A stretch of 64,000 nt of DNA from Chthoniobacterales bacterium (GCA_039930045.1 JBDSQB010000010.1:18264-82263); one strand, 5' to 3'. Positions 4,586-44,363 are shown, counted from the stretch's first letter. Notes: generated by a model from the sequence alone, not told the origin. Made by a program: numbers and translations.

Positions 4586-5344
4586 TTACTCCGCTGGCAG
4601 GGTGAAGCCGGCTTTTTTCCAGACGATCTGGGCTTCTGGGGTTTGCAGCCAGAGTTTGAATTCGCGGGCGTCGGGGGCGTTCGGGGCGTTGCGCAGGAGA
4701 ATGCCGGCTTGCTCCAGCCGGGGGTAGGCATCGGAGGGGATTTCCCAGTATCGGCCCTCGGCCTGCAGTTTCGGGGCGAGGGCGAGTGAGAGTCCGATGA
4801 GGCCGGCTTCGGCGGCGCCAGTTTGGACGAATTGGGCGGCTTGCACGACGTTTTCGCCGAGGACGAGGCGGTCTTTCACGGCGTCGTAAACGCCGAGCGA
4901 GCGCAGGGCGGCGACGGCGGCGCGTCCGTAGGGGGCGTGGTCGGGGTTGGCGATGGCGATTTTTTTCACCGACGGATCGAGCAGGGCGCGGATACCTTGT
5001 TTCGGAAGATCGAGAGGGGAGTTTTTCGGCACCCAAAGGACGAGGTGGCCGGTGCCGTAGAGGAAGAAATCGGACTCGGATGCCAGTCCGTCGGCGATCA
5101 ATTTTCTCGGAAATGCGGCGTCGGCGGAGAGGAAGAGATCGAAGGGCGCGCCGTTTTTGAGTTGCTCGTAGAATTTGCCGGAGGCGCCGTAGGTGGGGCC
5201 GATTTTCACGTCAGGATGAGTGGTCTGGTATTGGGCAATGAGCTCGGGGAGAACGAATTGGAGGTCGGATGCGGCGGCGACAAGGACGGGTTCGGCCGAT
5301 AACGATGCGACTCCGATGAGGAGAAAAAAGAGGACGAGTCTCAT
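4586..5344 (-). CDS. modA: molybdate ABC transporter substrate-binding protein
   Basis: Signal peptide MRLVLFFLLIGVASLSA followed by a ModA-like periplasmic binding fold (GASG, SADAAFP, ANPDHAPYG motifs). No modBC is adjacent. Confidence 0.75.
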   Translation of the reverse strand: MRLVLFFLLIGVASLSAEPVLVAAASDLQFVLPELIAQYQTTHPDVKIGPTYGASGKFYEQLKNGAPFDLFLSADAAFPRKLIADGLASESDFFLYGTGHLVLWVPKNSPLDLPKQGIRALLDPSVKKIAIANPDHAPYGRAAVAALRSLGVYDAVKDRLVLGENVVQAAQFVQTGAAEAGLIGLSLALAPKLQAEGRYWEIPSDAYPRLEQAGILLRNAPNAPDAREFKLWLQTPEAQIVWKKAGFTLPAE

Positions 5345-5450
5345 GCGAATGAGGCTGGGGAATTTTGTGGGCTGGGTCAAACATTCCGCCGTTCCTTTGG
5401 TCGGGTGATTGTGTTATGAGAGGGCTGTGTTTTTCTTCCAGTCGAGTTCC

Positions 5451-6899
5451 ATGGTTATCAGGCGTGCGGCGTTTATTCTGGCCGCGGTTTTGGGTCTGAT
5501 CACCCACGCTGCCGCGCAAAATCCAGTGCCGCCGGAGCCGATGCGGGAGTTTCGCGGAACATGGGTGGCGACGGTGTTTAATCTCGACTGGCCGTCGAGC
5601 AGTCATACATCGGCCTCGGTGCAGCAGGCGCAGCTCGTGGCCATCCTCGACAACGCGAAACGACTGAAACTCAACGCTGTCATTCTCCAGGTGCGGCCCA
5701 ACAGCGACGCGCTTTATCGGTCGTCGATGGAGCCTTGGTCGGCCTGGCTGACGGGCAGCATGGGGGCTGATCCGGGTTACGATCCACTGGCGTTTGCGGT
5801 GGCGGAGGCGCACCGGCGCGGGCTGCAATTGCACGCGTGGGTGAATCCCTTTCGCGCGCTCGCAACGACGGAGGGAGGAATGTCGGAGCGTCACATTTCG
5901 CAGCGGCATCCCGAGTGGATTCGGCGATTTGGGACGCAGCTTTTCATCGATCCGGGTGTGCCGGAGGCGCGGGAGTATGTGCAGCGGGTGATCCTCGACA
6001 TCGTGCGTCGCTACGACGTGGACGGGGTGCATTTGGACGATTATTTTTATCCGTATCCGGCGGGCAGCGCGGAGTTTCCCGACGGGGCGAGTTACAAGAA
6101 ATACAGCGGCGGCCTGGCGCGAGCGGAGTGGCGGCGGCAGAATATCGACCGCTTCATTTCCGGGCTCTACTCGGCGATCAAGAGCGAGAAACGCACGGTG
6201 CTTTTCGGGGTAAGCCCGTTTGGAATCTGGCGTCCGGGCGTGCCTGAGGGAACGACGGCGGGAGTGGATGCCTACGGGTCGCTGGCTTGCGACGCGAAGC
6301 TCTGGCTGCAAAAGGGCTGGGTGGATTATTTGTCGCCGCAGTTGTATTGGACGAGTGATTCGCCGGGGCAGAGTTTTACGAAACTTTACGACTGGTGGAG
6401 CGAGCAAAACGCGACGGGCCGCCATCTCTGGCCGGGCATCGCCACCGAGCGGATCGGCGCGGGCCGCAACGCCGCCGAGCAGGCACGGCAGATCAACACG
6501 ATTCGCCGGGGGCGCGGCGACGCGGGGCACATTCATTGGAGCAACAAATCGCTCATGCAGAATCGCGGCGGCATCGCGACAGCGCTGGCAAAGACGACTT
6601 ACGCCACCCTCGCGCTCGTGCCGGCCTCGCCCTGGCTGGACCGCGACAAACCGTCGAAACCCGCGCTGGTTTCCAAGATCCAGGAGGGCTCGCATTATGT
6701 GGACTGGGGTGAGTCGCAGTCGAATGTGGCCAGCTACCTCGTGCAATGGCAGACAACGACCGGGTGGACGAGCCAAATCATCGGCTCAACGAACACGGGC
6801 GTCGCCTGGCCGAGCGGAAGCGATGTGGTGCGGTCGGTCGCCGTGCGCACGGTCAGCAGAACTGGCATCCTGAGCGACGTGGCCTGGCTGCAACGCTAG
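5451..6899 (+). CDS. glycoside hydrolase-like 10 (GHL10/DUF187, YngK-like) family protein, secreted
   Basis: Signal peptide MVIRRAAFILAAVLGLITHAAA. Motifs REFRGTWVATVFNLDWP, LNAVILQVRP and HAWVNPF are typical of GHL10. Confidence 0.7.
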   Translation: MVIRRAAFILAAVLGLITHAAAQNPVPPEPMREFRGTWVATVFNLDWPSSSHTSASVQQAQLVAILDNAKRLKLNAVILQVRPNSDALYRSSMEPWSAWLTGSMGADPGYDPLAFAVAEAHRRGLQLHAWVNPFRALATTEGGMSERHISQRHPEWIRRFGTQLFIDPGVPEAREYVQRVILDIVRRYDVDGVHLDDYFYPYPAGSAEFPDGASYKKYSGGLARAEWRRQNIDRFISGLYSAIKSEKRTVLFGVSPFGIWRPGVPEGTTAGVDAYGSLACDAKLWLQKGWVDYLSPQLYWTSDSPGQSFTKLYDWWSEQNATGRHLWPGIATERIGAGRNAAEQARQINTIRRGRGDAGHIHWSNKSLMQNRGGIATALAKTTYATLALVPASPWLDRDKPSKPALVSKIQEGSHYVDWGESQSNVASYLVQWQTTTGWTSQIIGSTNTGVAWPSGSDVVRSVAVRTVSRTGILSDVAWLQR

Positions 6900-7630
6900 G
6901 CGCGCAGATAGTGCCAGCCGCGAAAGAGCCAGCGGCTGATTTCGTTGTAAACTTGATACGGGTAAGTCGCCAGGTAGCGGCGAAACGAGGAGAGCTTGAG
7001 CGATTTCCCGATTTGGATGGAGGACTTAAAGCCGGTCTCAGTCTGCGACGCGGGAAACGGGTAAATGTAGGCCGCGCTCAGGCCGAAGCACCATTCGCGA
7101 TCCATGGCGTGGTCGATCGGGAGTCGCATCGGAATGAGCCCTTCGACCAGCGCTTCCGCGGCGCGGCGGTCCACGACGTAGGCACCGGTGCCCTTCAGCC
7201 GCCCAAAGCCGATGCAAATCTGGTAGTGGCCAAAAAGTTTCCCGATCACGGCGGGTTTGCCTCGGGAGAGACCGGTCAGGCGCAGAATGTTCCAGCTCCG
7301 GTGGTAATGCATCGCCTCCTGAATGGCGGCCTCGAAGTCGGGTTCGAGCGTGAGATCGTCCTCGGCGATGAGCGCGTAATCGTCCTCGCTCGTGAGAAAT
7401 TCCCGCATCGCCTTCACGTGACTGAGATAGCAACCGACGTGACCCAGGCTCGTGGGGCGCCCGTGAAACCAGCGATAAAGTCCCTCCGAATACTCGGGAA
7501 TCGGCAGTTGCAAGGCGTGGCCATTGACGCCGGAGACGCGGTGAATGTCGAACTGTGTGCCAGCAAACGACTGGGAAACAGATGCCCAGCGATCCGTCGC
7601 GGAGTCGAGATTGATGATGTAAGCGCGCAC
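6896..7630 (-). CDS. glycosyltransferase family 25 (LPS/LOS biosynthesis, Lic2B-like)
   Basis: VRAYIINLDSATDRW N-terminus plus the GHVGCYLSH and AEDD motifs characteristic of GT25. Likely GTG start at 7630-7628, overlapping the upstream TAG. The track ORF extension to 7828 is Arg-rich and implausible. Confidence 0.65.
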   Translation of the reverse strand: MRAYIINLDSATDRWASVSQSFAGTQFDIHRVSGVNGHALQLPIPEYSEGLYRWFHGRPTSLGHVGCYLSHVKAMREFLTSEDDYALIAEDDLTLEPDFEAAIQEAMHYHRSWNILRLTGLSRGKPAVIGKLFGHYQICIGFGRLKGTGAYVVDRRAAEALVEGLIPMRLPIDHAMDREWCFGLSAAYIYPFPASQTETGFKSSIQIGKSLKLSSFRRYLATYPYQVYNEISRWLFRGWHYLRA

Positions 7631-8115
7631 TACATTCTCTCCAAAATCTGGCGTTTCTTCGAGGTGTATTCGTCCTCGGTGATGATGCCGTCGTCGCGCA
7701 GTTGGTAAAGGCGGCGAAGCTGCTCGTCGAGCGGCAGGTGATTGATGCGCCGATCGCTGGAAGCGCCTAGGGAAATGCCTGCCTCGTCCAGCGCGTCCTT
7801 CGCCATGCCGCCCTGCATTCGCGACCACGGCTCCACATCGCGTCGTGCTTTTTCGGGGTCAAGAACGATGCCAGACCCCGCCGCGCCAGCCCTTCCCAAA
7901 CCTGCTAAAATCATTCCCAAAACAATTAGCGCCATCCCGCCAAAACCGCGAATCGCCATGGAACGGCCAAAGTTCACACCCATGCTGAAGTCGCCAAAAT
8001 GGAGTGCAAATGACACGAAGCAGGACGCAAAAATCAGCCCGCCCAATGTCGCCAAGCCGAGGCCCGTATAATAAACGCCCTTGCGTCGGGGTGAGAGCTG
8101 TCTGCGGGGTGTCAT
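7630..8115 (-). CDS. SHOCT-domain membrane protein
   Basis: Two hydrophobic segments, then a C-terminal LRRLYQLRDDGIITEDEYTSKKRQIL segment, which is a SHOCT (short C-terminal) domain. Start taken at MTPRRQ. Confidence 0.6.
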   Translation of the reverse strand: MTPRRQLSPRRKGVYYTGLGLATLGGLIFASCFVSFALHFGDFSMGVNFGRSMAIRGFGGMALIVLGMILAGLGRAGAAGSGIVLDPEKARRDVEPWSRMQGGMAKDALDEAGISLGASSDRRINHLPLDEQLRRLYQLRDDGIITEDEYTSKKRQILERM

Positions 8116-8159
8116 CGAAATGGAAGATGGGTCACGCACTTGGATTTGACGAGTCTTTC

Positions 8160-11240: not shown

Positions 11241-12032
11241 ATGCGCCGCTACTTCGAGATTTACCAGATGCTTTTTCGCAATTCACTGATTCGCGAGATG
11301 AATTTCAAGGCGAACTTCCTGCTCTGGATGGCGGTCGAGCTGCTCTGGTTCGTCGGCCAGATTTTTTTCATCGAAGTCCTCTTCAACTACGTGGACAAAA
11401 TCGGCGATTGGTCGAAATGGCAGGTCGTGCTCCTCGTCGGAACGCATCAAATCATCGGCCAGCTTTTCCAAGCGTTTTTCTACACCAACCTCGCGAATCT
11501 GCCCGAACTCGTCCGCACCGGGAAACTGGATTTCCTCCTCCTGCAACCGGTGGATTCACAATTCATCGTCTCCACGAGCCGCTTCGGAGCCGACAGCGTT
11601 ATCAACAGCCTGGTCGGCGTCGCGATCGTGATTTTTTCTCTCGTGAAACTCGGGATTCAACCCTCGCTCTGGCAGATTCTGGCCTACGCCGGGGCCGTCG
11701 TGTTCGGGATTGGCATTCATTATTCGATCATGTTTTCGCTGGCGACGGTCAGCTTTTGGATCGTGCGCGCGCAGGGCGTGATCCATGGGTATTACAACCT
11801 CTTCAACATCGCGCGCTATCCCGACGTGGTTTTTCGCGGGGTGTTTCGGGCGATTTTCAGCTTCGCGATTCCGGTGATCATCGTCGCGAACACTCCGGCT
11901 CGCGTCCTGATGAATCTCGGAAACACGCCCGCGCTTTTTCTCCAGCTCGCCCTCGCCTCGGGCACAGTGGTTGTCCTGAGCCGGCTCTTCTGGAAAGTCG
12001 CGTTGCGCCGTTACTCGAGCGCGAGCTCCTAG
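11241..12032 (+). CDS. ABC-2 family transporter permease (DUF990-like)
   Basis: Six hydrophobic segments. N-terminus MRRYFEIYQMLFRNSLIREMNFKANFLLWM is typical of ABC-2 permeases. No partner ATPase is adjacent. Confidence 0.6.
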   Translation: MRRYFEIYQMLFRNSLIREMNFKANFLLWMAVELLWFVGQIFFIEVLFNYVDKIGDWSKWQVVLLVGTHQIIGQLFQAFFYTNLANLPELVRTGKLDFLLLQPVDSQFIVSTSRFGADSVINSLVGVAIVIFSLVKLGIQPSLWQILAYAGAVVFGIGIHYSIMFSLATVSFWIVRAQGVIHGYYNLFNIARYPDVVFRGVFRAIFSFAIPVIIVANTPARVLMNLGNTPALFLQLALASGTVVVLSRLFWKVALRRYSSASS

Positions 12033-13171: not shown

Positions 13172-13375
13172 AAGCCAGAATCGAGCCGCGCAGAGTTTAT
13201 CATAGTTCAAGCTATCGTCGAGCAATTTTAAGGCCACGTGTGGAGCTTCTTCACTCAGCTGCGAATGGAACGGGGAGCGCGCATGGGAAAACTTAATGTT
13301 GCCGAAAAGCGCATTTTGAGCCACTTTAGCCGCTTCCTTGCCATCAGGGAAAAACCCTCATTTCATTAAAACACC

Positions 13376-33814: not shown

Positions 33815-34207
33815 TCATGGACGGTTTTTCGGAAGCACTCGCTTCCTCGTTTCCAAACTGTCAATAGAGCTGACTCCCTCGTTCCCAAACTGAAGTTTGG
33901 GAACGAGTTGATTCATTAACCACTCGCGCCCTTCCAGCTTCACCTGTTCGAGAAGTACTAACGACGTGTGCCGTTTGATAGCCGTAATCGTCCTCTCCAA
34001 CTCCGGTCCTCCTAATATCGCGTGAAAGTGCGTATCGAGGACGACCCATGCGTAAATCTTCAACCCCCGTTGCTCGCGACAATGCACCAGCGAGCTAACC
34101 AAAATATCCGCACAAGCACTTGTCGCGAAAACCGGGAGCCAATTTACAATCGTGCCCGTGATGAAATGGGCGCGCTCTGGGTCGTTAATGTGATAACGCG
34201 TGCGCAT
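33815..34207 (-). pseudogene. REP-associated tyrosine transposase (RayT / IS200-like HuH Y1 transposase), apparently C-terminally truncated
   Basis: IYAWVVLDTHFHAIL closely matches the RayT HuH block (E. coli YafM INAWVVLPEHMHCIW). There is no Tyr anywhere after residue 52, so the catalytic Y block is missing. The frame runs into a REP-like palindrome. Confidence 0.6.
33876..33907. repeat. REP-like palindromic element, copy L (13-bp stem, tgaa loop)
   Basis: ccctcgttcccaaacTGAAgtttgggaacgag. Confidence 0.8.
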
Positions 34208-34266
34208 AATGTTAGTAAGAGAAGGTTAGCAGGGCAACACAGTTGCCGTGACAAGCCCGTTCCCAA

Positions 34267-34299
34267 ACTTCAGTTTGGGAACGAGGGGCACGAGGGACC
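34267..34299. repeat. REP-like palindromic element, copy R, inverted relative to copy L (30/30 identity to its reverse complement)
   Basis: cccgttcccaaacTTCAgtttgggaacgagggg. The loop orientation is flipped relative to copy L. Confidence 0.8.
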
Positions 34300-34354: not shown

Positions 34355-35056
34355 CTACGGTGCCACCGGAGGAGTGGGATTCTCCTCAGCATCGTCTTCC
34401 GCGTGGCCGCCGCCTAGATCGACGATCAGGCGGGCACTCGTGTAGGCGTTAAAGAACTCCGGGTTCTTCCGCTTAAACTTTCGCATCGCCTTGTCGATCT
34501 GCTTCTTGAGTAACGTCATTGCGCTCGCTGTATCGAGCCCGATGTCGCCCGTCACCCCTTTGCCAGCCACGATCGCCTGTCGAGGAGCCGTCGCCAGGGG
34601 GAGGTAAACCGTGATCGCCGCATCCAGTTCGGCCAGGTCCTCCGCCGTCGTGCCCAGCAGATCGATGTCCGCCGCACGGGCCAGACAGAGATCATAGAGC
34701 GTGCGGCAATACGGGCCCACCAAGGCGTCATCCATGCGGAGCAACGTCGTTAGCTCCACATCCGTCTTTGCGGCCAGCTCATCATCCTGCGCCGTCACCG
34801 CCACCGTGTGGAGATCGCCCACCGCCGACACGGTCAACTCCGCCATCTCGATCTGCTTGCGGCTTTTGCCACCGGCGATGCCCGTCTGCGGTGTCCCTTG
34901 CACGCCACTCGCATCCTGAATCGACTTCACGAGAGCGCCGAGTTGCGTCACCAGCGCGGCAAACGCCGTCAGCGACACCCATTGGGCGTTGTATTTCTGC
35001 ATGATGCCGAGCACGGCGAGAAACATGCTGAGTTTGTTTTTCTGTGGATTTGTCAT
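34355..35056 (-). CDS. hypothetical protein (orphan, no recognisable motifs)
   Basis: 233-aa ORF with coding-like composition, lying between the REP/RayT element and the 21-bp repeat array. Confidence 0.5.
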   Translation of the reverse strand: MTNPQKNKLSMFLAVLGIMQKYNAQWVSLTAFAALVTQLGALVKSIQDASGVQGTPQTGIAGGKSRKQIEMAELTVSAVGDLHTVAVTAQDDELAAKTDVELTTLLRMDDALVGPYCRTLYDLCLARAADIDLLGTTAEDLAELDAAITVYLPLATAPRQAIVAGKGVTGDIGLDTASAMTLLKKQIDKAMRKFKRKNPEFFNAYTSARLIVDLGGGHAEDDAEENPTPPVAP

Positions 35057-35164
35057 ATACCGCCCGTGTCCAAGCAGAGCGTGAGCCAGTTCAACCGCAA
35101 TCGTTCAAAACACCGCCTTGGCGTGAAGATTTCTCACTTTATCACCCAAAAATTCGGTTTGCAG

Positions 35165-35416
35165 AGGCTTATGTCTGATCGCACGAAGCGTATGTTCCAC
35201 TTTGAGACCGCCATGCGCCGCAGTGAGGGCGGCAGGATCGACAGTGGATTGCGTATGTTTGCCTTCACTGCGCAAATGTCACCAATGCAAAGCCGTATGT
35301 TTGACCTCACCTGCTGTATGTTTGGGTGAGAGCAGCCTATGTTTCACTTGCAGGCCGGTATGTTTGGGTTGCAGAGCCCTATGTTTGGGTGAGAGACGGG
35401 TATGTGTGGCTAAATG
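35165..35416. repeat. array of 12 direct repeats with exact 21-bp phasing, core TATGTTT (iteron/centromere-like or cooperative regulator binding array)
   Basis: TATGT cores at 35170, 35191, 35254, 35296, 35317, 35338, 35359, 35380 and 35401, with degenerate cores (CATGC, CAGGA, AATGT) at the intervening 21-bp steps 35212, 35233 and 35275. Example units tgctgTATGTttgggtgagag and agcccTATGTttgggtgagag. Confidence 0.8.
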
Positions 35417-35585
35417 GCTGCTATTTCAAGGTAATGGCAGACGGACCTGCTAAACGCACGGCTCGGAAGGGCTTTATGGATCAAGTGACGAGGTTATTGT
35501 TTTTCCTTCCAGTTGTTCACTAGCCTATCATGGGTTTCTTTTGCACAGAACCCAGCGCCATCTCTAACGGTCACTCCTTAAATCT

Positions 35586-38500
35586 ATGAAAATACTTATC
35601 CTCCATATCAGTGACATCCACCTACGAGAAGAGCATCAGAATCCGAGCATTCCTAAATTTGGGTTTATTGCCCCGGCTTTGCAGAATGAGGAACATGACC
35701 TTACCCATGTAGTAGTTGCCATTTCTGGTGACGTAGCCTATGCGGGAAAGAAATCGGAATATGAGCTCGCTAAAAAGTGCTTAGATTCTTTGACAGCAGG
35801 CCTTCAGGAGCGTCTCAAAGTAGAAAAGGTTCGTTACGTGCTTATTCCCGGAAATCACGATTGTGATTTTTCCGGCAACAACAGAATGCGGATGTTGGCC
35901 ATTGAAGCTGTCAGAAATGGAGAAGCCCCTGACGATGAAATGATCGATTCTTGCTGTAAGCCGCAAGCCGAATTCGTAAAATTTCGGGACAGCCACCCAA
36001 ATGCCAAGCCAGATCACCAAAGCAGCCCTCTTCACTGGCAGTATCGAATAGAGGATGTCTCTTCAAGCATTGAGTTTCGTTGCTTCAACACAGCCTGGAT
36101 GTCCGTCCTGCACGAGACACAAGGAACACTACATGTTCCCGATTTGGTAGCCGACCATGAGGATTCGAGCAACGGGAGCGATTACGTGGTCTCGCTTTTT
36201 CACCACCCGTATAACTGGATGCCATCAGCAACTTTTCGTCGTTTCAAAACATTAGTGGAGGAGTCTTCGGATCTGGTTCTTACTGGCCACGAGCACGAAG
36301 CTGATCATTTTCAGAAATACTCATTCAAGAGTCAGGAAGTGAATGACTACCTCGAGGGTGCCGTATTCCAAGAGAATGATCGCGACGACCGAGCTGGATT
36401 CCACGCCGTATTTGTGGATTTAATTGCCCAGAGACAGAGGACCGTAAGTTTTACTTGGGAAGAACAAAGGTTTGCCCCTGAGTCTATCGAAGTGTCATGG
36501 GTCCCTTACAAGCGCGGAAGCCGAGGCGGCAAAAGAGAGTTTGATCTTAGTGAGGAGTTTGCAAAATCGCTTGAAGATCCTGGCGCAAGTTATCAACACC
36601 CCGCAAAACCAGACCTGCGACTTGCCGATATCTATGTATTTCCCAATTTGAAGCAGTTTGAGATCAGCAAGAAGACCGATTTTGTTTATGGATCTCTCAT
36701 TGAAGGCCGAGACGTTCTCAAGACACTCGGTTCGAAACGGAAGGTTTTGCTGTTCGGAAGACAGCAATCAGGCAAGACGACGCTTGCAAAGGTGCTTTTT
36801 ACCGACCTCTACAACAAGAATCTAACTCCGGTGCTCATCTCAGGAGACGATCTTACCAAAGCGCACCTAAACAGTGAGAAGTTAGATACATTAGTTGAGA
36901 CTCAATTCGCGAAACAGTACCGAAATCCAAATCTTCCGGCTTTCGATCAAGTTGATAAAGATAAGGCTATTTTGATCGTCGATGATTTTGACCATGGCGC
37001 ACTAAACTCAGCGGGGCGTCTCAAGCTTTTGGAAGTAGCAACGAAGCGTTACGATCGCTTGGTTGTCTTTGCTGACGATATAATCAAGCTAGAAGAACTC
37101 GCTGTTTATAAGGAAGGAAGTGATGTGCTAACAGATTTCGAACAATTCGAAATAGTTCAATTCGGCCATCTTCTCAGGAGCAAACTCATCACTCAGTGGT
37201 ACTCAATCGGAAGTGAATACGATGCGGATCCCATAGAGTTAGGGAAGCGTATCCATATTGCCGAACAGATGGTTTCAACAATGCTCGGGAAGAATTATCT
37301 TCCGCACTTTCCGGTTTTCATTCTCACCTTAATTCAAGCAAGCGATTCGGCAGCGCATCCTAACACTAGTGCGGGAACATACGGTAGTCTTTACGAGATT
37401 ATTATCACACAGGCGCTAGCTTCGAAATCATCAAATGTCGATCTCGACACTAAAATGACTTATCTGAGCGAAATTGCGCATTGGATGCATGCGGCCCAAA
37501 AGAAGAGAATTACAGATGATGAGTGGGAATACTTTCACCGGATATACTGCAAAAAATTCAAGATTCATCCATCAAAGGAATCAATAAAGAGGGATTTTGC
37601 AACTAACGGCTTATTTGATCTTAGAGACGAGCGTTACGGATTTCGGCATCCGGCTTCATACTACTATTTCGTAGCACGCTATTTCCGAGATAACTTATCG
37701 AAGGATTCAGCTCGAACGGCAGTAGCTGGTTTGTTGAGCAAGCTTTACAAAGAAGAGCACGCAAGCATCTGGCTGTTTCTCACACATTTATCGAAGGATC
37801 CGTTTCTGCTAGAAACAATTCTAGAGCATGCAAAGCGGATTTACTCTGAGTTTCCCTCAGCCCGTTTTGAAGAAGATGTTTCATTTCTTCAGGCCCTTGC
37901 AGACAGCGTTGAAAAGATTGTCTTAAAAGACAAATCTTTAGGGGAATCTAAAGAGGAGAGACTTAGGACACTTGATGCACTTCCTGCCTTACCTGACACG
38001 AGCGATGATTTCGACGGAGGTGAGGATGAGACAAATGAGACTCTTAAGCTAATTGCCAAGATGAACCTTGCCCTTCGAACTTTAGAAGTGCTCGGGCAAT
38101 TGGTGAAAAATTTCCCCGGTTCACTTCAAGGTGATGACAAGCTCGCATTGGTTCAGGAATGTTATGCGCTTGGTCTGCGTACAATTTCAATGTTGTTTGG
38201 TCTCTTCCAAAGTGATGTAGAGGCTTTTGTTGATTGCGTTTATGAGCGATTGATCGAGAAACATAGCGAAATTGATGACCGTGACGAACTAAAGAGCAAA
38301 GTTCGAAAGTTTATGTTTTGGATGATTGAAAGCGCGAGTTTTGGCATGATTAAGCGCATTGCTCAGGCGGTGGGCCATTCTCAACTCGGGGAAATCTACA
38401 GAGAAGTGAGGGAACAGGACGAAAGCAATGCAACTGCACTCATCGACATTGCTATCCACTTAGAGAACTTAGGTTTCCCTGAGGACAGATTGAAAGAACT

Positions 38501-38783
38501 GGCGCAAAAGTTTCTTCCGCAAATTAGCTCGCCGATGCAGCGCCCCGCGAGTAATTCTAAATACCCCGTTGCTGTTCCTCGGCGTAGCAAGAATCTATTT
38601 TGTGAACAGATATTGAAGCAACTGGTAGTGGAACACTTTTACCTTTTCCCAACTCGGGAATCGACCAAACAAAAGATTTGCGCGGCTCTCCAGATTGAGG
38701 TTCAAAAGATCCGGCATCTCGATGTAAAGGCCGAGAATGAGAGGCGTGCTCCTCAATCTTCTCTCCCGGATGAGAATCAATAA
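35586..38783 (+). CDS. calcineurin-like metallophosphoesterase fused to P-loop NTPase (AAA+/STAND-like) with large helical C-terminal region; candidate defence/stress protein
   Basis: MPP motifs D10xH12 (HISDIHL), GD48 (SGDVAY), GNHD89-92, HH207-208, GHEH235-238. Walker A FGRQQSGKTT (392-400), Walker B AILIVDDFD (462-470). ~590-aa alpha-helical C-terminus. GC ~45% versus ~62% in the flanks. Confidence 0.85.
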   Translation: MKILILHISDIHLREEHQNPSIPKFGFIAPALQNEEHDLTHVVVAISGDVAYAGKKSEYELAKKCLDSLTAGLQERLKVEKVRYVLIPGNHDCDFSGNNRMRMLAIEAVRNGEAPDDEMIDSCCKPQAEFVKFRDSHPNAKPDHQSSPLHWQYRIEDVSSSIEFRCFNTAWMSVLHETQGTLHVPDLVADHEDSSNGSDYVVSLFHHPYNWMPSATFRRFKTLVEESSDLVLTGHEHEADHFQKYSFKSQEVNDYLEGAVFQENDRDDRAGFHAVFVDLIAQRQRTVSFTWEEQRFAPESIEVSWVPYKRGSRGGKREFDLSEEFAKSLEDPGASYQHPAKPDLRLADIYVFPNLKQFEISKKTDFVYGSLIEGRDVLKTLGSKRKVLLFGRQQSGKTTLAKVLFTDLYNKNLTPVLISGDDLTKAHLNSEKLDTLVETQFAKQYRNPNLPAFDQVDKDKAILIVDDFDHGALNSAGRLKLLEVATKRYDRLVVFADDIIKLEELAVYKEGSDVLTDFEQFEIVQFGHLLRSKLITQWYSIGSEYDADPIELGKRIHIAEQMVSTMLGKNYLPHFPVFILTLIQASDSAAHPNTSAGTYGSLYEIIITQALASKSSNVDLDTKMTYLSEIAHWMHAAQKKRITDDEWEYFHRIYCKKFKIHPSKESIKRDFATNGLFDLRDERYGFRHPASYYYFVARYFRDNLSKDSARTAVAGLLSKLYKEEHASIWLFLTHLSKDPFLLETILEHAKRIYSEFPSARFEEDVSFLQALADSVEKIVLKDKSLGESKEERLRTLDALPALPDTSDDFDGGEDETNETLKLIAKMNLALRTLEVLGQLVKNFPGSLQGDDKLALVQECYALGLRTISMLFGLFQSDVEAFVDCVYERLIEKHSEIDDRDELKSKVRKFMFWMIESASFGMIKRIAQAVGHSQLGEIYREVREQDESNATALIDIAIHLENLGFPEDRLKELAQKFLPQISSPMQRPASNSKYPVAVPRRSKNLFCEQILKQLVVEHFYLFPTRESTKQKICAALQIEVQKIRHLDVKAENERRAPQSSLPDENQ

Positions 38784-38822
38784 GTCCCTTCAAATCATTG
38801 CAGGCCGTTCTGAAGCCACCAA

Positions 38823-38896
38823 ATGGCTGCCTCACAAGGATTTGAACCTTGACAAATTGATCCAGAATCAATTGTGCTACCGTTACACCATGAGGC
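38823..38896 (-). tRNA. tRNA-Gln (anticodon CTG)
   Basis: Minus-strand 74-nt cloverleaf: acceptor tgcctca/tgaggca (U1:A72 as in bacterial tRNA-Gln), D stem gtg/cac, anticodon stem attga/tcaat with loop ttCTGga, T arm caagg-ttcaaat-ccttg, discriminator G, CCA. Confidence 0.8.
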
Positions 38897-38989
38897 ACTC
38901 TTTTTGGGGGCGTTAGTTTACCTCAGGGAGGGTTTTGGGCAAACGGAATTTTCCATCCGCCTGAGGATCGCCCTCCATCCGCCTGAGCG

Positions 38990-40147: not shown

Positions 40148-41764
40148 TTAGTGGGCGGCGGAGGCGAGTTCTTTGTTGCCGCCTTTGCCGAGGAAGAAAA
40201 GCAGGGGCAGCGAGATGATGAAGGCGATGCCGACGTATAGAAAAATATCGGAAAAAGAGAGCAGGGTGGACTGGCCGTTGATGAGGGAATCGAGGAGATG
40301 GAGGGCTTGTTTTTTGGCGGCCACGGCGTCGCCGCTATGCGCTTGCAAGGCACCGGTATAGGCCCGCAAACGCTGCATGGCTTCGGGATGGAAGACGGTG
40401 ATTTTTTCCACGAGAGCCGAGCGATGAATGGCTTCGCGCTGGACGAGTAAGGTGGTAATGACGGCGATGCCGACGCTGCTGCCGATCTGCCGGGTGAGAT
40501 TGTAGAAGCCGGAACCGGAGGCGATTTTGTCCTTGGGCAGGCCGCCGAGCGAGGCAATGCTCAGTGGAAGAAACATCATCACGCTGCCGACGCTGCGCAA
40601 AATGAGCGGTAGAAACAGGCTGTGCGTGCCCGTGTCGGGGTTGATGTCGGACAGGAGAAAGGCCGAGGAAACGGTGATGAGCGCACCCGTGCCGACGAGA
40701 AGACGCGCGTCGGCTTTCCCAGAGAATTTCCCCATGAAGACCATCGTGACCGCTGCGGCGATGGCTCCGGGGACTTGCAGCAGGCCGCTCTGCATGGCGG
40801 TGAAGTGCAGGTAGTTTTGCACAAAGATCGGCACGGCAAAAATGACGCCAAAGATGCCCATGCCGAGGACGAATGAATAGACGCTGCCCGCCGCGAGCGT
40901 CTTGTAACGCAACACGCGCAGATCGACCGCAGGATACGCGGTGGTGAGTTCGCGCCAGATAAAAAAGCCCAACCCGAGCACGCTGCCGATGGCGGTGAAC
41001 GTGATGAGTTGCGAGGCAAACCAGTCTTCCTGTTGCCCTTCCTCGAGCATGGTCTGGAAACAAGCCAGTCCACCGGCAAGCAGCCCGATACCCAACCAAT
41101 CGACTTTTTGATTCACCGCATCCTCGCTGCGGTCGCGCGGGAGAAACGTGGTCGCCATGAGCACGCCGACGATGCCGACCGGGATATTAATGAAGAAAAT
41201 CCAGCGCCAGCCCATCGTGTCAGTCAGATAGCCGCCGAGCACCGGGCCCAGCGCCGGGCCGACGATGATCGCGATGCCAAACATCGCCTGCGCCACACCT
41301 TGTTCTTCCTTGGGAAACGTCTCGAAAAGGAGCGATTGCGCCTTGGCCAGCAAGCCGCCGCCGCACAAGCCTTGGAGAATACGCGCAACGATCAGAAACA
41401 TCAGGCTCGGCGACAACCCGCACAAAACCGACGAGACGGTAAAACCGACGAGCGAGAAAATGAGATAGCGTTTCCGGCCAAATCGGTCGCTCAACCACGC
41501 GGTCAGCGGAATCAGGACGACGTTCGCGCAAGCGTAGCCAGTCGAGATCCAGCCGACTTCGGACAACGTCGCACCGAGATTGCCCTGGATGTCGGGCATG
41601 GCGACATTGACGATGCTCGTGTCCACGATTTCGAGGAGCGCTCCGAGCGAGGCGGTCAGCGCGATGAGCCATTTCAATAATCCACGCTCCGCCAGCGACG
41701 CCGCCCACGGCGAGAGCAGACTGAGATCGGACCCGTAGAGTCCGCGCTGGGCGGCGGCGCTCAT
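40148..41764 (-). CDS. emrB: MFS transporter, DHA2 (EmrB/QacA) 14-TMS drug efflux family
   Basis: LSDRFGRKR MFS motif A with ~14 hydrophobic segments. Start taken at MSAAAQ. 4-bp overlap with the tetR stop. Confidence 0.85.
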   Translation of the reverse strand: MSAAAQRGLYGSDLSLLSPWAASLAERGLLKWLIALTASLGALLEIVDTSIVNVAMPDIQGNLGATLSEVGWISTGYACANVVLIPLTAWLSDRFGRKRYLIFSLVGFTVSSVLCGLSPSLMFLIVARILQGLCGGGLLAKAQSLLFETFPKEEQGVAQAMFGIAIIVGPALGPVLGGYLTDTMGWRWIFFINIPVGIVGVLMATTFLPRDRSEDAVNQKVDWLGIGLLAGGLACFQTMLEEGQQEDWFASQLITFTAIGSVLGLGFFIWRELTTAYPAVDLRVLRYKTLAAGSVYSFVLGMGIFGVIFAVPIFVQNYLHFTAMQSGLLQVPGAIAAAVTMVFMGKFSGKADARLLVGTGALITVSSAFLLSDINPDTGTHSLFLPLILRSVGSVMMFLPLSIASLGGLPKDKIASGSGFYNLTRQIGSSVGIAVITTLLVQREAIHRSALVEKITVFHPEAMQRLRAYTGALQAHSGDAVAAKKQALHLLDSLINGQSTLLSFSDIFLYVGIAFIISLPLLFFLGKGGNKELASAAH

Positions 41765-42369
41765 TTTTTTACCTCCGCCAGCACCGTCGCCAGAACCATT
41801 TCCACGCATGACTTCCGATAGGCTGCGGAGGAATATTTCAGTTTGGCAAACGTCGAGGAACGCCGCAGCACGTCCATGAAAATCATGCCGTTGAGCTGAT
41901 CCACCACCATTTCACTGGAAGTCGAATGGGTAACGCCGCGGGAGGCTTTTTCCCGGTCCAGCCGCCCGGCCAGCATCTGACGCAAAGGACGAAACACCGC
42001 ATGGAAAACCTGGCGCTCATGGTCCTGAAACCGATGAATTTCTCCAACCATCGTGCGTATCAGCGGGAGATTCGTCGTGATGATTTCCGAGTAAATCCGC
42101 ACGTATTCCACCAGATAACTCCGCAAGTCGAGTGCATCCGAAATGGGCTTTTCCGGGGCGATTTTAGCTTTCAGGCCGAAGATGTTTTCGACCACGGCAG
42201 CGAGCAATCCGTCCTTGTTGCCAAATTTCCGGAACAGCGTGACTTCGTTCACGCCCGCCTCGCGGGCGATCTCGCGAGTGCTGGCACCCTCGATTCCCTT
42301 CAATGCAAAAATGCGTGCTGCGGCTTCGAGGAGACGAGTTTCAGTGGATTCAGCGGGCAGAGTGCTCAT
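41761..42369 (-). CDS. TetR/AcrR family transcriptional regulator
   Basis: HTH TREIAREAGVNEVTLFRKFGNKDGLL. Confidence 0.85.
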   Translation of the reverse strand: MSTLPAESTETRLLEAAARIFALKGIEGASTREIAREAGVNEVTLFRKFGNKDGLLAAVVENIFGLKAKIAPEKPISDALDLRSYLVEYVRIYSEIITTNLPLIRTMVGEIHRFQDHERQVFHAVFRPLRQMLAGRLDREKASRGVTHSTSSEMVVDQLNGMIFMDVLRRSSTFAKLKYSSAAYRKSCVEMVLATVLAEVKK

Positions 42370-42465
42370 GTAAGTAGTTGCTTGCATTTTCCAACACGAT
42401 CTCGAAAACGCAACGGGCAAAATTGCATTGCGCAAGGGCCGAGTGGGAAATCATGCTCTCCACCG

Positions 42466-43179
42466 ATGCCAGCTCCCGATACGAATCCCACCTGGCGCGT
42501 GCTCGTGGTCGAGGACGATCCGTCGATCCGCGATGTGCTGGAGTATGCGCTGAAAAACGAGGGCTTCGCCGTGCGCTGGACCGCCCGTGGACGCGAGGCT
42601 GTGGCCATCGTGGGCGAGGGGAAAACGGACATGGTGATCCTCGATGTCGGCCTGCCGGATTTCGATGGCTTTGAAGTCTGCCGACAGGTCCGCGCGGGAA
42701 ATGTGGGAGCTTCGATTCCGATTTTATTTCTCTCCTCCCGCAGCGATGAGGTGAATAGGATCGTCGGCCTCGAAATGGGCGGCGACGATTATCTGGTGAA
42801 GCCGTTCAGCCCGCGCGAATTGATGGCACGAATCAAGGCTGTGCGCCGCCGCCTCACCTCCGGCGGAGCTGAAGCCGAGACGCGCCGGAAGATAGTTTAC
42901 GGTCCGATCACACTCGACTTCGAGACGGTTCGTACGACTTGCGAGGATCGCGAGGTGAGCCTCACGCGGCAGGAAATGCGGCTGCTGGAATTGTTAGTAT
43001 CGCGACCCGGCCGGGTCTTCACCCGCGACGAAGTGCTCGATCGCGCCTGGGGCGAGGGCGGACTAGTCACAGACCGAACCATCGATGTGCACATCAAGGC
43101 GGTGAGGAAAAAGTTTGCGCCATTTGAGTTTATCGAGACCGTGCGCGGCACCGGCTACCGCGTGCGCGAGCTTGGTTAG
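42466..43179 (+). CDS. OmpR/PhoB-family response regulator (orphan)
   Basis: REC domain (VLVVEDDP...DMVILDVGLPDFDG...K) plus a winged-helix C-terminus (TVRGTGYRV). ATG at 42466. Confidence 0.85.
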   Translation: MPAPDTNPTWRVLVVEDDPSIRDVLEYALKNEGFAVRWTARGREAVAIVGEGKTDMVILDVGLPDFDGFEVCRQVRAGNVGASIPILFLSSRSDEVNRIVGLEMGGDDYLVKPFSPRELMARIKAVRRRLTSGGAEAETRRKIVYGPITLDFETVRTTCEDREVSLTRQEMRLLELLVSRPGRVFTRDEVLDRAWGEGGLVTDRTIDVHIKAVRKKFAPFEFIETVRGTGYRVRELG

Positions 43180-43394
43180 GAAATGGTTAGTAGAAAGTTT
43201 TTTGGGATTGCCGGTTGACGCGTCCCCGATCCTTGCTAAGTCTTACAACGTCATTCCAATGAAACTCGCCGTCCATTCCAAACCAACCTGCCTCGCCGCT
43301 GCCTATCGCGCTGCGAAGATGGTCGTCCGTATTTGGAATACTAACATGGGCCGTGGAGCTTTCTGATTTAAATCTAACCAAACATTTTTCCAGA

Positions 43395-43428
43395 AAACCC
43401 ACTGCCCGAAAAGCAGTGGGTTTTTTGT
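43395..43428 (+). terminator. rho-independent terminator
   Basis: aaacccactgc-ccgaaaa-gcagtgggttt followed by ttttttg. Confidence 0.75.
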
Positions 43429-43454
43429 TTCCCCCTCCAGAACAAAACAAAACC

Positions 43455-43679
43455 ATGAACACAGAAAACATCCTAACCTACCTGCAGGTGCCGCCCGAAG
43501 TGGAGGCCTTGCAATTTGAGAGCCTGGTCGAAATCTACATCGACCTGGGACTCAACCGCGCCCAGGCCGCCGCCGCCGCGCAGGCCGACTACCTGTGCAC
43601 TAACATGCTCGCCTTTCGCCGCCGCGGCACCATGGACGGGAGCTATCTTCTCGTCGGCAGCGCCCTCCGCGCGGCTTGA
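43455..43679 (+). CDS. small hypothetical protein (74 aa)
   Basis: ORF MNTENILTYLQVPPEVEALQFESLVEIYIDLGLNRAQAAAAAQADYLCTNMLAFRRRGTMDGSYLLVGSALRAA. No motif support. Confidence 0.3.
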   Translation: MNTENILTYLQVPPEVEALQFESLVEIYIDLGLNRAQAAAAAQADYLCTNMLAFRRRGTMDGSYLLVGSALRAA

Positions 43680-43739
43680 GTCGTAGTGCAATCTCTGCTT
43701 GCCAGCGCGCCGGCGAATCGTCTAAATAAAGCTCCTGCC

Positions 43740-44363
43740 ATGGATGTTAGAATCAGCGCCGCCCAGCAGCGGATCATTACTGCCATTGCCAAGTTTGCGC
43801 GCAACGACCAGCCTGCGTTTGTGCCTGAACTGGTTCAGGAACTCGGCCTCGCAAATGCCAGCAGCGTGAATTCCACCTTGAAAACCATGCAACGCAACGG
43901 CCTTGTCGAAGTCGCCGGCGGCGGAGCCAAGGGCCGCTCGCGCGTCGTGAGATTGACCACTCTCGGACGCAATGCGGCTGGCATCGGCGGCCTGCCGTTA
44001 TTGGGAAGAATCGCGGCTGGTTACCTCACCGAGGCGCTGGCCGAGCCCGAGGAAATGATCGATTACAAAGACCTGCTGCCATCGAGGGATGGAGATTTTT
44101 TGTTGCGCGTCACCGGCGATTCCATGACGGGAGACGGCATTCTCGATGGAGATAAAGTCCTGCTGCGTCCGGGTGTGGACTGGCGCGATGGCGAGATCGC
44201 CGCCGTCCAGGTCGGCTATGAGCGCGAGGCGACTTTGAAACGAATCTACCGCGAGGGCGCAAAGATTAGACTCAAGCCCAGCAACGACCGTTTTCCAGAA
44301 ATCATCGTGAACGCATCCGACGTCATCGTCGCCGGCGTCTTTCGCGGACTCGTGCGCGACTAG
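43740..44363 (+). CDS. lexA: LexA repressor (S24 peptidase)
   Basis: N-terminal wHTH, AG cleavage site (RIAAG|Y), GDSM and K catalytic motifs (VTGDSMTGDGILDGD...K). Confidence 0.9.
   Translation: MDVRISAAQQRIITAIAKFARNDQPAFVPELVQELGLANASSVNSTLKTMQRNGLVEVAGGGAKGRSRVVRLTTLGRNAAGIGGLPLLGRIAAGYLTEALAEPEEMIDYKDLLPSRDGDFLLRVTGDSMTGDGILDGDKVLLRPGVDWRDGEIAAVQVGYEREATLKRIYREGAKIRLKPSNDRFPEIIVNASDVIVAGVFRGLVRD

Follow-up and report, generated by a model that had tools for sequence, protein, structure and literature searches.

We have examined a gene at 35586-38783 on the plus strand of a 64,000-nucleotide stretch of DNA from a Chthoniobacterales bacterium (GCA_039930045.1, JBDSQB010000010.1:18264-82263; the whole stretch is referred to here as the window). 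Our comparisons indicate that this gene encodes a divergent member of the DS-8 family, that is, a stand-alone NLR-like anti-phage protein, and that it was acquired horizontally beside a tRNA-Gln gene; we assign this interpretation a probability of about 0.82. DS-8 (DefensePredictor system 8) is a single protein of 1014 amino acids (aa) from Escherichia coli (WP_032203427.1; DeWeirdt et al., bioRxiv 10.1101/2025.01.08.631726; Science 2026, PMC13092281), which its authors annotated as an SMPDL3A-like metallophosphatase joined to a NACHT domain (PMC13092281). It shields MG1655 from phages, and each of the substitutions D52A, N84A and K375A abolishes defence (Table S11, PMC13092281). Protection, expressed as -log efficiency of plating, was 2.2 on SECphi17 and 1.2 on T5, and phage resistance has been demonstrated for the E. 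coli protein only (PMC13092281). An earlier note on the window had read the gene as anti-phage defence, which agrees with its resemblance to a family that is protective in E. coli.

The strongest evidence for family membership came from the NCBIfam equivalog NF053861.1 ('DS8_antiphage'), against which the protein scored 956.3 bits (cut-off 790), with residues 7-976 aligned to positions 1-957 of the 994 in the profile. A search of PADLOC-DB v2.0.0, proposed in the earlier note as a check and giving no curated cut-off, matched the candidate family PDC-S60 through two models, PDLC05050 (E = 3e-115, residues 320-1048) and PDLC05051 (E = 5.3e-28, residues 5-704). For direct comparison with DS-8 we used residues 1-399 of the 1014 as the reference sequence (Table S8 of the DS-8 paper), and observed by BLASTP a collinear match over residues 3-421 of the window protein, with 24% identity and E = 8e-31; collinearity past DS-8 residue 399 rests on the hidden Markov model (HMM) and on an alignment of 25 members. 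Residues D52, N84 and K375 of DS-8 align with D49, N90 and K397 here, and all 3 positions are invariant in the family. The mutants that had been suggested from the sequence, in the metal ligands and the Walker A lysine, are of the same kind as the published substitutions. The window protein thus agrees with DS-8 in the HMM cut-off, in collinearity, in the essential residues and in its single-gene status. When all complete E. coli genomes were searched by blastn with an Enterobacterales homologue, no match was obtained; the E. coli DS-8 itself stems from draft assemblies.

Since the protein passes the curated model of the published family, the system is one that is already known, and the claim that it is an undescribed module fails. 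In 2022, a list of the domains carried by bacterial NACHT proteins at the N-terminus already included calcineurin-like phosphoesterases (Kibby et al.), and this bioinformatic listing of the architecture was followed by a PADLOC candidate in 2023, by experimental validation in 2025-26 (PMC13092281) and then by the NCBI model. We found no mention of PDC-S60 in the literature searched, and neither metallophosphoesterase effectors nor DS-8 appear in the main text of a 2026 Nature survey of STAND sensors.

The reading frame starts with ATG and runs through the full 1065 codons at exactly the coordinates previously claimed for it, and the gene calls of the source contig agree. Residue M1 is invariant in a 24-sequence N-terminal alignment, which indicates that the start codon is correctly assigned. 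The identical protein is present at NCBI under the title 'MAG: metallophosphoesterase [Chthoniobacterales bacterium]'. As the earlier note had stated, the complete set of metallophosphoesterase (MPE) motifs is present, namely D10-I-H12, G48-D49, G89-N90-H91-D92, H206-H207 and G234-H235-E236-H237. These residues, as well as those of Walker A and Walker B, are invariant across 25 homologues of 31-77% identity, and when E. coli DS-8 was added (in the 24-sequence alignment) the MPE motifs were still invariant except for E236, which was nearly so. The Pfam model Metallophos (PF00149) matched residues 5-238 with 37.4 bits (cut-off 21.5); with its 5 metal-ligand motifs and a score above the gathering threshold, the domain belongs to the calcineurin-like MPE superfamily. 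Walker A (GRQQSGKTT, residues 391-399) and Walker B (ILIVDD, residues 461-466) lie 69 residues apart, in keeping with the earlier estimate of about 70, although the lysine given there as K398 is K397. Further downstream, nSTAND_NTPase4 (PF24406) matched residues 641-696 with 29.3 bits (cut-off 27), and a match to nSTAND3 fell below the Pfam threshold. A 27-residue insertion (977-1003), gapped in 78% of the aligned homologues, precedes the conserved terminal helices (1004-1042), in which L1010 and C1032 are invariant.

An AlphaFold2 model was built from the 25-sequence alignment (mean predicted local distance difference test, pLDDT, 80.9; predicted template modelling score, pTM, 0.62) and compared with the PDB by Foldseek. 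The central region matched NOD2, NLRP3, NLRP9, NLRC4 and NAIP5 (E = 6e-9 to 2.5e-6) and, more distantly, Avs4 (E = 4e-5) and ORC/Cdc6. In the model, the nucleotide-binding, helical and winged-helix domains together show the fold of an NLR NACHT module, and the C-terminal stretch of about 590 aa that had been called helical is predicted to be almost wholly so. A search of the PDB with the sequence of the whole protein gave no useful match. The predicted domain order, which is summarized in Table 1, is the one originally proposed, with the MPE effector at the N-terminus, a STAND-type NTPase in the middle and a helical region at the C-terminus.

Table 1. Features of the gene and its surroundings, with positions counted from the first nucleotide of the window
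Feature	Coordinates	Strand	Basis
Putative DS-8-family anti-phage gene, 1065 aa, single-polypeptide system	35586..38783	+	Open reading frame (ORF), NF053861.1, PDC-S60
N-terminal calcineurin-like MPE, residues 1-300, presumed effector	35586..36485	+	
Linker and beta-rich connector, residues 301-380	36486..36725	+	Chassis common to TIR-fused relatives from about residue 321
P-loop nucleotide-binding domain, NACHT-like STAND NTPase, residues 381-525	36726..37160	+	Walker A G391-T399, Walker B I461-D466
Helical and winged-helix domains of STAND module, residues 526-705	37161..37700	+	PF24406; secondary structure of model
C-terminal all-helical region, residues 706-1042, presumed sensor	37701..38711	+	Model; collinear with TIR-fused relatives to residue 1037
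Lineage-specific insertion, predicted disordered, residues 977-1003	38514-38594	+	pLDDT below 50
C-terminal tail, predicted disordered, residues 1043-1065	38712-38780	+	pLDDT below 50
Low-GC islet, about 3.8 kb (529-bp upstream spacer, gene and tRNA)	35057..38900		Fine GC profile
tRNA-Gln(CTG), at right edge of low-GC tract	38824-38897	-	ARAGORN; Rfam tRNA, 64.6 bits
RAYT-like ORF, 130 aa	33815-34207	-	NF047646.1, 48.4 bits (cut-off 80), model positions 4-88 of 146

The N-terminal domain, examined in the same way, matched Bacillus subtilis YydB, Lmo2642, SMPDL3B/3A, Rv0805 and Vps29. The best of these matches was to YydB in an integrative YydD-YydB model (9a6c_B, E = 9e-13), and the literature searched held nothing informative about the role of the YydB/YydD pair. 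Purple acid phosphatases (PAPs), Lmo2642, Rv0805, SMPDL3A/B and GpdQ ranked ahead of SbcD and Mre11, which had no entry among the 50 best Foldseek matches. Sequence profiles gave GpdQ (1.4e-7) and Lmo2642 (2.5e-6), then SbcD and Mre11 (both about 1e-3) and Rv0805 (1e-2). Taken together, the model and the profiles agree with the annotation published for DS-8 and lean modestly towards a phosphodiesterase of small molecules or nucleotides rather than a nuclease.

These rankings bear on the possibility that the MPE is a nuclease of the Mre11/SbcD type, which when activated would degrade phage DNA, host DNA or both. The effectors of STAND and Avs proteins are, as is well established, most often nucleases (Kibby et al.), the third PADLOC match was labelled 'Effector / Endonuclease' (E = 2.8e-12, residues 1-292), and the weak profile matches to SbcD and Mre11 point the same way. 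Against these stand the absence of both proteins from the best fold matches, a score of 11.7 bits for the sbcd model TIGR00619 (cut-off 77.65), a catalytic core that is not followed by a capping or DNA-binding domain of the Mre11 type, and the HHpred match of DS-8 itself to SMPDL3B, reported by its authors with a probability of 0.997 (PMC13092281). We regard such a nuclease as unlikely, although a serious candidate.

We also looked for a housekeeping fusion for DNA repair, like SbcD-SbcC or Mre11-Rad50, the case named beforehand as one that would overturn the defence interpretation, and consider it effectively refuted. The combination of an MPE and a P-loop ATPase in a single protein would suit it, and one source names a homologue (P0059) 'DNA repair exonuclease SbcCD nuclease subunit'. 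The analogy to SbcCD that the earlier note drew does not hold, however: TIGR00619 is far under its cut-off and the fold matches point elsewhere. SbcCD and Mre11-Rad50 have an SMC/ABC ATPase, a coiled coil, a capping domain and a conserved context, whereas the ATPase of the window protein has a STAND/NACHT-like fold, its model contains neither coiled coil nor zinc hook, and its context is not conserved. As described below, the family is also sporadic and compositionally foreign in nearly all loci, and we consider a repair function here extremely improbable.

Further information about the N-terminal domain came from plasmid-borne relatives. A tblastn search of plasmids returned full-length relatives from Paenisporosarcina and Clostridium botulinum, together with TIR-annotated proteins whose match is confined to residues ~321-1037, from plasmids of Vibrio parahaemolyticus, Streptococcus and Lactococcus. 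One of the latter, Vibrio WP_159404407.1 (873 aa), has its TIR domain at residues 3-108, also carries the nSTAND_NTPase4 signature, and is collinear with residues 321-1037 of the window protein at 26% identity (E = 8e-64). The alignment to the PADLOC model PDLC05050 starts no earlier than position 191 of that model, whose N-terminus is therefore a different effector, in keeping with the TIR-fused relatives. From these alignments, the NTPase and C-terminal region are a chassis that carries alternative N-terminal effectors. Interchangeable N-terminal effectors are a hallmark of STAND/NLR-type immune proteins, and the presence of TIR and MPE on one chassis argues that the MPE is an output domain, that is, a swappable effector. 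At locus L081, from the V. parahaemolyticus plasmid NZ_CP034287.1, the TIR-fused gene lies at 5500-8121. A single nucleotide separates it from the end of a preceding hypothetical ORF of 196 aa (4908-5498), which has no Pfam match and may be a partner that only the TIR variant has; genes for an antirestriction protein and a recombinase are nearby.

The TIR-fused relatives are pertinent to another explanation, in which the MPE would be a signal-degrading phosphodiesterase that removes a cyclic or linear nucleotide messenger, made by the phage or by another system of the host, without killing the cell. DS-8 is structurally similar to SMPDL3A, which cleaves cyclic GMP-AMP, and it was by this analogy that the DS-8 authors themselves proposed signal removal (PMC13092281); Kibby et al. 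place calcineurin-like phosphoesterases among 'nucleotide-signal-generating/degrading' N-terminal domains. Yet no cyclase or other signal-producing gene is conserved beside the gene in 21 loci, the messenger to be removed has yet to be named, and the chassis carries TIR in other lineages, which suggests an effector and not a signal eraser. In single-protein STAND systems, TIR is typically a toxic, NAD-consuming effector. Signal removal therefore seems to us improbable, though it should be kept in mind.

The most likely mechanism, by analogy with bacterial NLR-like and Avs proteins, is an NLR-like one, in which sensing leads to oligomerisation dependent on nucleoside triphosphate (NTP) and this in turn to activation of the MPE. 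The protein would be an auto-inhibited monomer in the uninfected cell. On infection, a cue would be sensed by the conserved C-terminal helical region, and the NACHT-like STAND module would bind NTP through K397 and the Walker B residues D465/D466, so driving oligomerisation. The N-terminal binuclear MPE domains, gathered and activated in this way, would hydrolyse a phosphodiester substrate, and phage replication would halt, with the infected cell probably being sacrificed. Trigger, oligomerisation, substrate and abortive outcome are all drawn by analogy with those proteins, and activity in the Chthoniobacterales host is likewise inferred. As to the substrate, we somewhat favour a nucleotide-type small molecule, either essential or signalling, on account of the fold ranking and of the equivalence with TIR on one chassis; the 'endonuclease' label in PADLOC counts against this estimate. 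A nucleic acid is a less probable substrate that nevertheless has to be reckoned with, and there is a slender chance that it is something else.

The distribution of the family is consistent with horizontal mobility. In a set of 1.84 billion clusters (50% identity) the family had 5,273 representatives when the limit was E <= 1e-3, or 1,888 with E <= 1e-30, and relatives were present in 296 of ~186,000 species-representative genomes, belonging to Verrucomicrobiota, Acidobacteriota, Chloroflexota, Bacteroidota, Bacillota, Pseudomonadota, Planctomycetota, the Candidate Phyla Radiation and others. The GC content of the gene was below that of its surroundings in 52 of 53 loci with long flanks (mean difference 0.11), and a tRNA gene lay within ~3.5 kb in ~10 of 60 loci. 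Sporadic occurrence in many phyla, low relative GC, plasmid copies and tRNA adjacency together show, at the level of sequence comparison, that the family is horizontally mobile, as the earlier note had concluded for this gene from its foreign composition. The layout of the window is repeated with different tRNAs in distant homologues from metagenome-assembled genomes of Omnitrophota (L008, tRNA-Val, 11755-11829) and Rikenellaceae (L030, tRNA-Leu, 13231-13316), where the tRNA gene is on the minus strand 110-130 bp after the stop codon. Phage genomes in GenBank gave no tblastn match to the protein. IMG/VR contained at least 1 full-length relative (L083, 8001-11045, IMGVR_UViG_3300031555_011054; 25% identity), which is located where the stored part of a 50-kb predicted viral contig ends.

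We searched for partner genes among 126 neighbour ORFs from 21 loci, with an all-against-all BLAST in addition. Subunits of type I restriction-modification (R-M) systems were the only recurrent neighbour family (~4-5 of the 21 loci); transposases, integrases, TniB and SMC-like ATPases each occurred twice, and the all-against-all comparison revealed no unannotated recurring partner. The earlier statement that the gene has no partners holds both in the window and across the homologous loci, and by this comparison of neighbourhoods it is a single-gene system without an obligatory partner. Four of the 21 homologues lie beside or within a type I R-M operon (L001, 6229-17597; L007, 5861-9801; L019, 4705-9087; L036, 4965-9940), and in the first of these the DS-8-type gene is located between hsdS and hsdR.

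In the window itself the gene lies in a low-GC tract that extends from ~35,050 to 38,900. The GC content is 45.2% (0.452) in the gene, close to the earlier figure of about 45%, and 0.503 in the spacer; the flanks measure 58-59%, and not 62% as had been estimated for the background. GC at third codon positions (GC3) is 0.456 in the gene and 0.822 in the adjacent HlyD-type gene. The tRNA-Gln gene, whose adjacency had been noted before, lies 40 nt after the stop codon and is a plausible integration site. We considered a canonical tRNA-targeted island and rejected it: neither an integrase nor a repeat of the tRNA 3' end is present, and only the break in composition and the tRNA adjacency remain. 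The neighbours in the window are housekeeping genes (SPFH, PNPOx, an ORF of 233 aa of unknown function, a TetR-MFS-HlyD efflux operon, a response regulator and LexA) and none gave a credible PADLOC match. The right flank (40148-44363) consists of ordinary core-type genes, with the minus-strand TetR-MFS-HlyD operon ending at the tRNA-Gln gene and followed by the OmpR-type response regulator and the LexA homologue. The gene thus forms an islet by itself, outside any multi-system defence island, and the earlier framing as a defence island was overstated.

It should be noted that a number of observations, which we collect in this and the following paragraph, weigh against the interpretation given at the outset. 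Identity to the validated E. coli DS-8 is 24%, in a comparison that covers 399 of its 1014 residues. No duplicated attachment site was detected, since the tRNA-Gln end has no significant copy to the left or right of the islet; no integrase is present within 10 kb on either side of the gene; and no neighbouring defence genes are present in the window. Nor did searches of metagenomes yield an empty site: they returned no relative of the adjacent 233-aa ORF and, for the HlyD-type neighbour, only matches at <=50% identity, and tRNA-Gln was present in 0 of 24 loci checked, with no syntenic locus.

Other points of this kind concern the NTPase and the putative sensor. The Pfam model for NACHT (PF05729) gave no match at E <= 1, and Pfam places the NTPase in nSTAND4, barely above threshold. 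The Walker B of the window protein reads hhhhDDFDH (I-V-D-D-F-D-H, with D-N-Y-H in distant members), and is not the canonical NACHT form D[GAS]hDE, in which the Mg-binding Asp is reportedly followed by a small residue and then by acidic residues. Because of the missing PF05729 match and the non-canonical Walker B, the accurate label, as far as sequence and model go, is 'NACHT-like STAND (nSTAND4)' and not NACHT sensu stricto. No Avs model was present among the PADLOC matches at E <= 1, so that this search does not place the protein with Avs, and no bNACHT model was among them either. As for the C-terminal region, it is as conserved as the NTPase and the MPE, the mean top-residue frequency being 0.51-0.58 across all of these. 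This differs from bNACHT01, whose sensor evolves quickly (Kibby et al. 2022/2023), and the role of a variable receptor for phage proteins is therefore not evident in the uniformly conserved region seen here. Possibly, the cue is itself conserved, or is derived from the host. A bolder proposal, which we think quite doubtful, is that the DS-8 family, the Verrucomicrobial clade included, is not a receptor for phage proteins at all but, with a C-terminal region conserved across phyla, senses a conserved small molecule or cue of the host's state, and that the MPE destroys a nucleotide as yet unrecognised in immunity. This, if true, would be an effector chemistry not seen before in NLR-like proteins, and the TIR-fused relatives would supply its NAD-consuming counterpart on one and the same chassis.

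The family assignment would also hold if the gene, for all its intact appearance, were a passenger that does nothing in this genome, whether through xenogeneic silencing or through decay. The strong GC3 contrast described above would fit such a state, as would our failure to find a sigma-70-like promoter upstream on the plus strand, a consensus that is of the E. coli type and not informative for Verrucomicrobiota. A Dehalococcoidia homologue (L024, 10001-10930) has an in-frame stop within its first 310 codons, which has been taken to show that decay does occur in the family; the stop could reflect a pseudogene, a sequencing error or a frameshift. The window gene, however, retains its full frame of 1065 codons with all catalytic and nucleotide-binding residues intact, and we give silence or decay little credence.

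Two other elements near the gene had been mentioned in the earlier note. The first, described as an unusual repeat array, is real: in the spacer of 529 bp that precedes the gene, at 35170-35421, a 21-bp unit whose core is GTATGTTTG occurs in 9 in-phase copies, which start at 35170, 35191, 35254, 35296, 35317, 35338, 35359, 35380 and 35401. Within the window, the 8-mer TATGTTTG occurs only in this array. Logan gene calls include a plus-strand ORF of 87 aa (35066-35329) that spans the array and belongs to no family, and an Rfam search of 33-40 kb found tRNA only, the array matching no RNA family. The array was rejected as part of the gene unit, being absent upstream of the 10 closest homologous loci. 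It may resemble iterons or comprise binding sites for a regulator. A more speculative suggestion is that it is a protein-binding element of uncharacterised type, which either controls the islet or is a remnant of the islet's carrier. The description of the second element as a truncated transposase holds only in part: this RAYT-like ORF matches the model of a REP-associated tyrosine transposase incompletely and below the cut-off, and it lies 1.4 kb from the gene in DNA of normal GC content. Palindromic REP-like repeats at 33871-33907 and 34249-34285 bracket this ORF and include a 30-nt perfectly complementary pair, so that the whole (33815-34287) has a REPtron-like arrangement. We rejected the ORF as evidence for mobility of the gene, since a position outside the islet makes it uninformative on the gene's acquisition.

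Comparison with described systems places the window protein closest to DS-8. Both are encoded by a single gene, are of a similar length class and have the order metallophosphatase, NACHT-like NTPase and helical C-terminus; they differ in host (Enterobacterales for DS-8, Verrucomicrobiota here), in the low identity over the comparable part, and in the 27-residue insertion and 23-residue tail that belong to the window protein. PDC-S60 is likewise a single-gene candidate, both of whose models match strongly, but it was predicted from genomic context and is not validated. With bNACHT (Kibby et al. 2022/2023) and Avs/AVAST proteins there is a common logic of effector, NTPase and sensor, a required Walker A lysine and single-gene status, and the predicted fold resembles NOD2, NLRP3, NLRC4 and Avs4; the window protein differs from them in having no Pfam NACHT or PADLOC Avs/bNACHT match, in its Walker B and in its uniformly conserved C-terminus. 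A further link to bNACHT is the HHblits result of the DS-8 authors, in which DS-8 and the bNACHT01 profile were connected at a probability of 99.8 (PMC13092281). The TIR-nSTAND4 plasmid proteins of Vibrio, Streptococcus and Lactococcus have the NTPase and C-terminal chassis in common with the window protein, and differ in having TIR in place of the MPE and in being ~190 residues shorter.

Other relatives resemble the N-terminal domain alone. SMPDL3A/B, Rv0805, GpdQ, Lmo2642 and the PAPs are binuclear MPEs that act on nucleotides or small phosphodiesters; they are stand-alone enzymes, with neither NTPase nor sensor, and at an identity of 12-19% their substrates are not transferable to the window protein. 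The MPE motif I-III region is also related to that of DS-9A (NF053862.1; E = 9.6e-12, residues 4-101), whose catalytic residues are likewise essential for defence (PMC13092281). The score, however, is 44.5 bits against a cut-off of 420, and the two-gene DS-9 system lacks an NTPase and depends on a HAD-phosphatase, a partner not present here.

As an isolated finding, the identification of this gene is of little import, in that a current annotation pipeline that draws on NCBIfam release 20 would name it 'anti-phage protein'. The question left by the DS-8 authors concerns the substrate and trigger of the MPE, and to their description our observations add several points. DS-8 belongs to a large, multi-phylum family that is almost always compositionally foreign to its surroundings, and its putative sensor is unusually conserved. 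Finally, the chassis in common with TIR-fused proteins supports the proposal that the MPE is an exchangeable effector and not a signal eraser.

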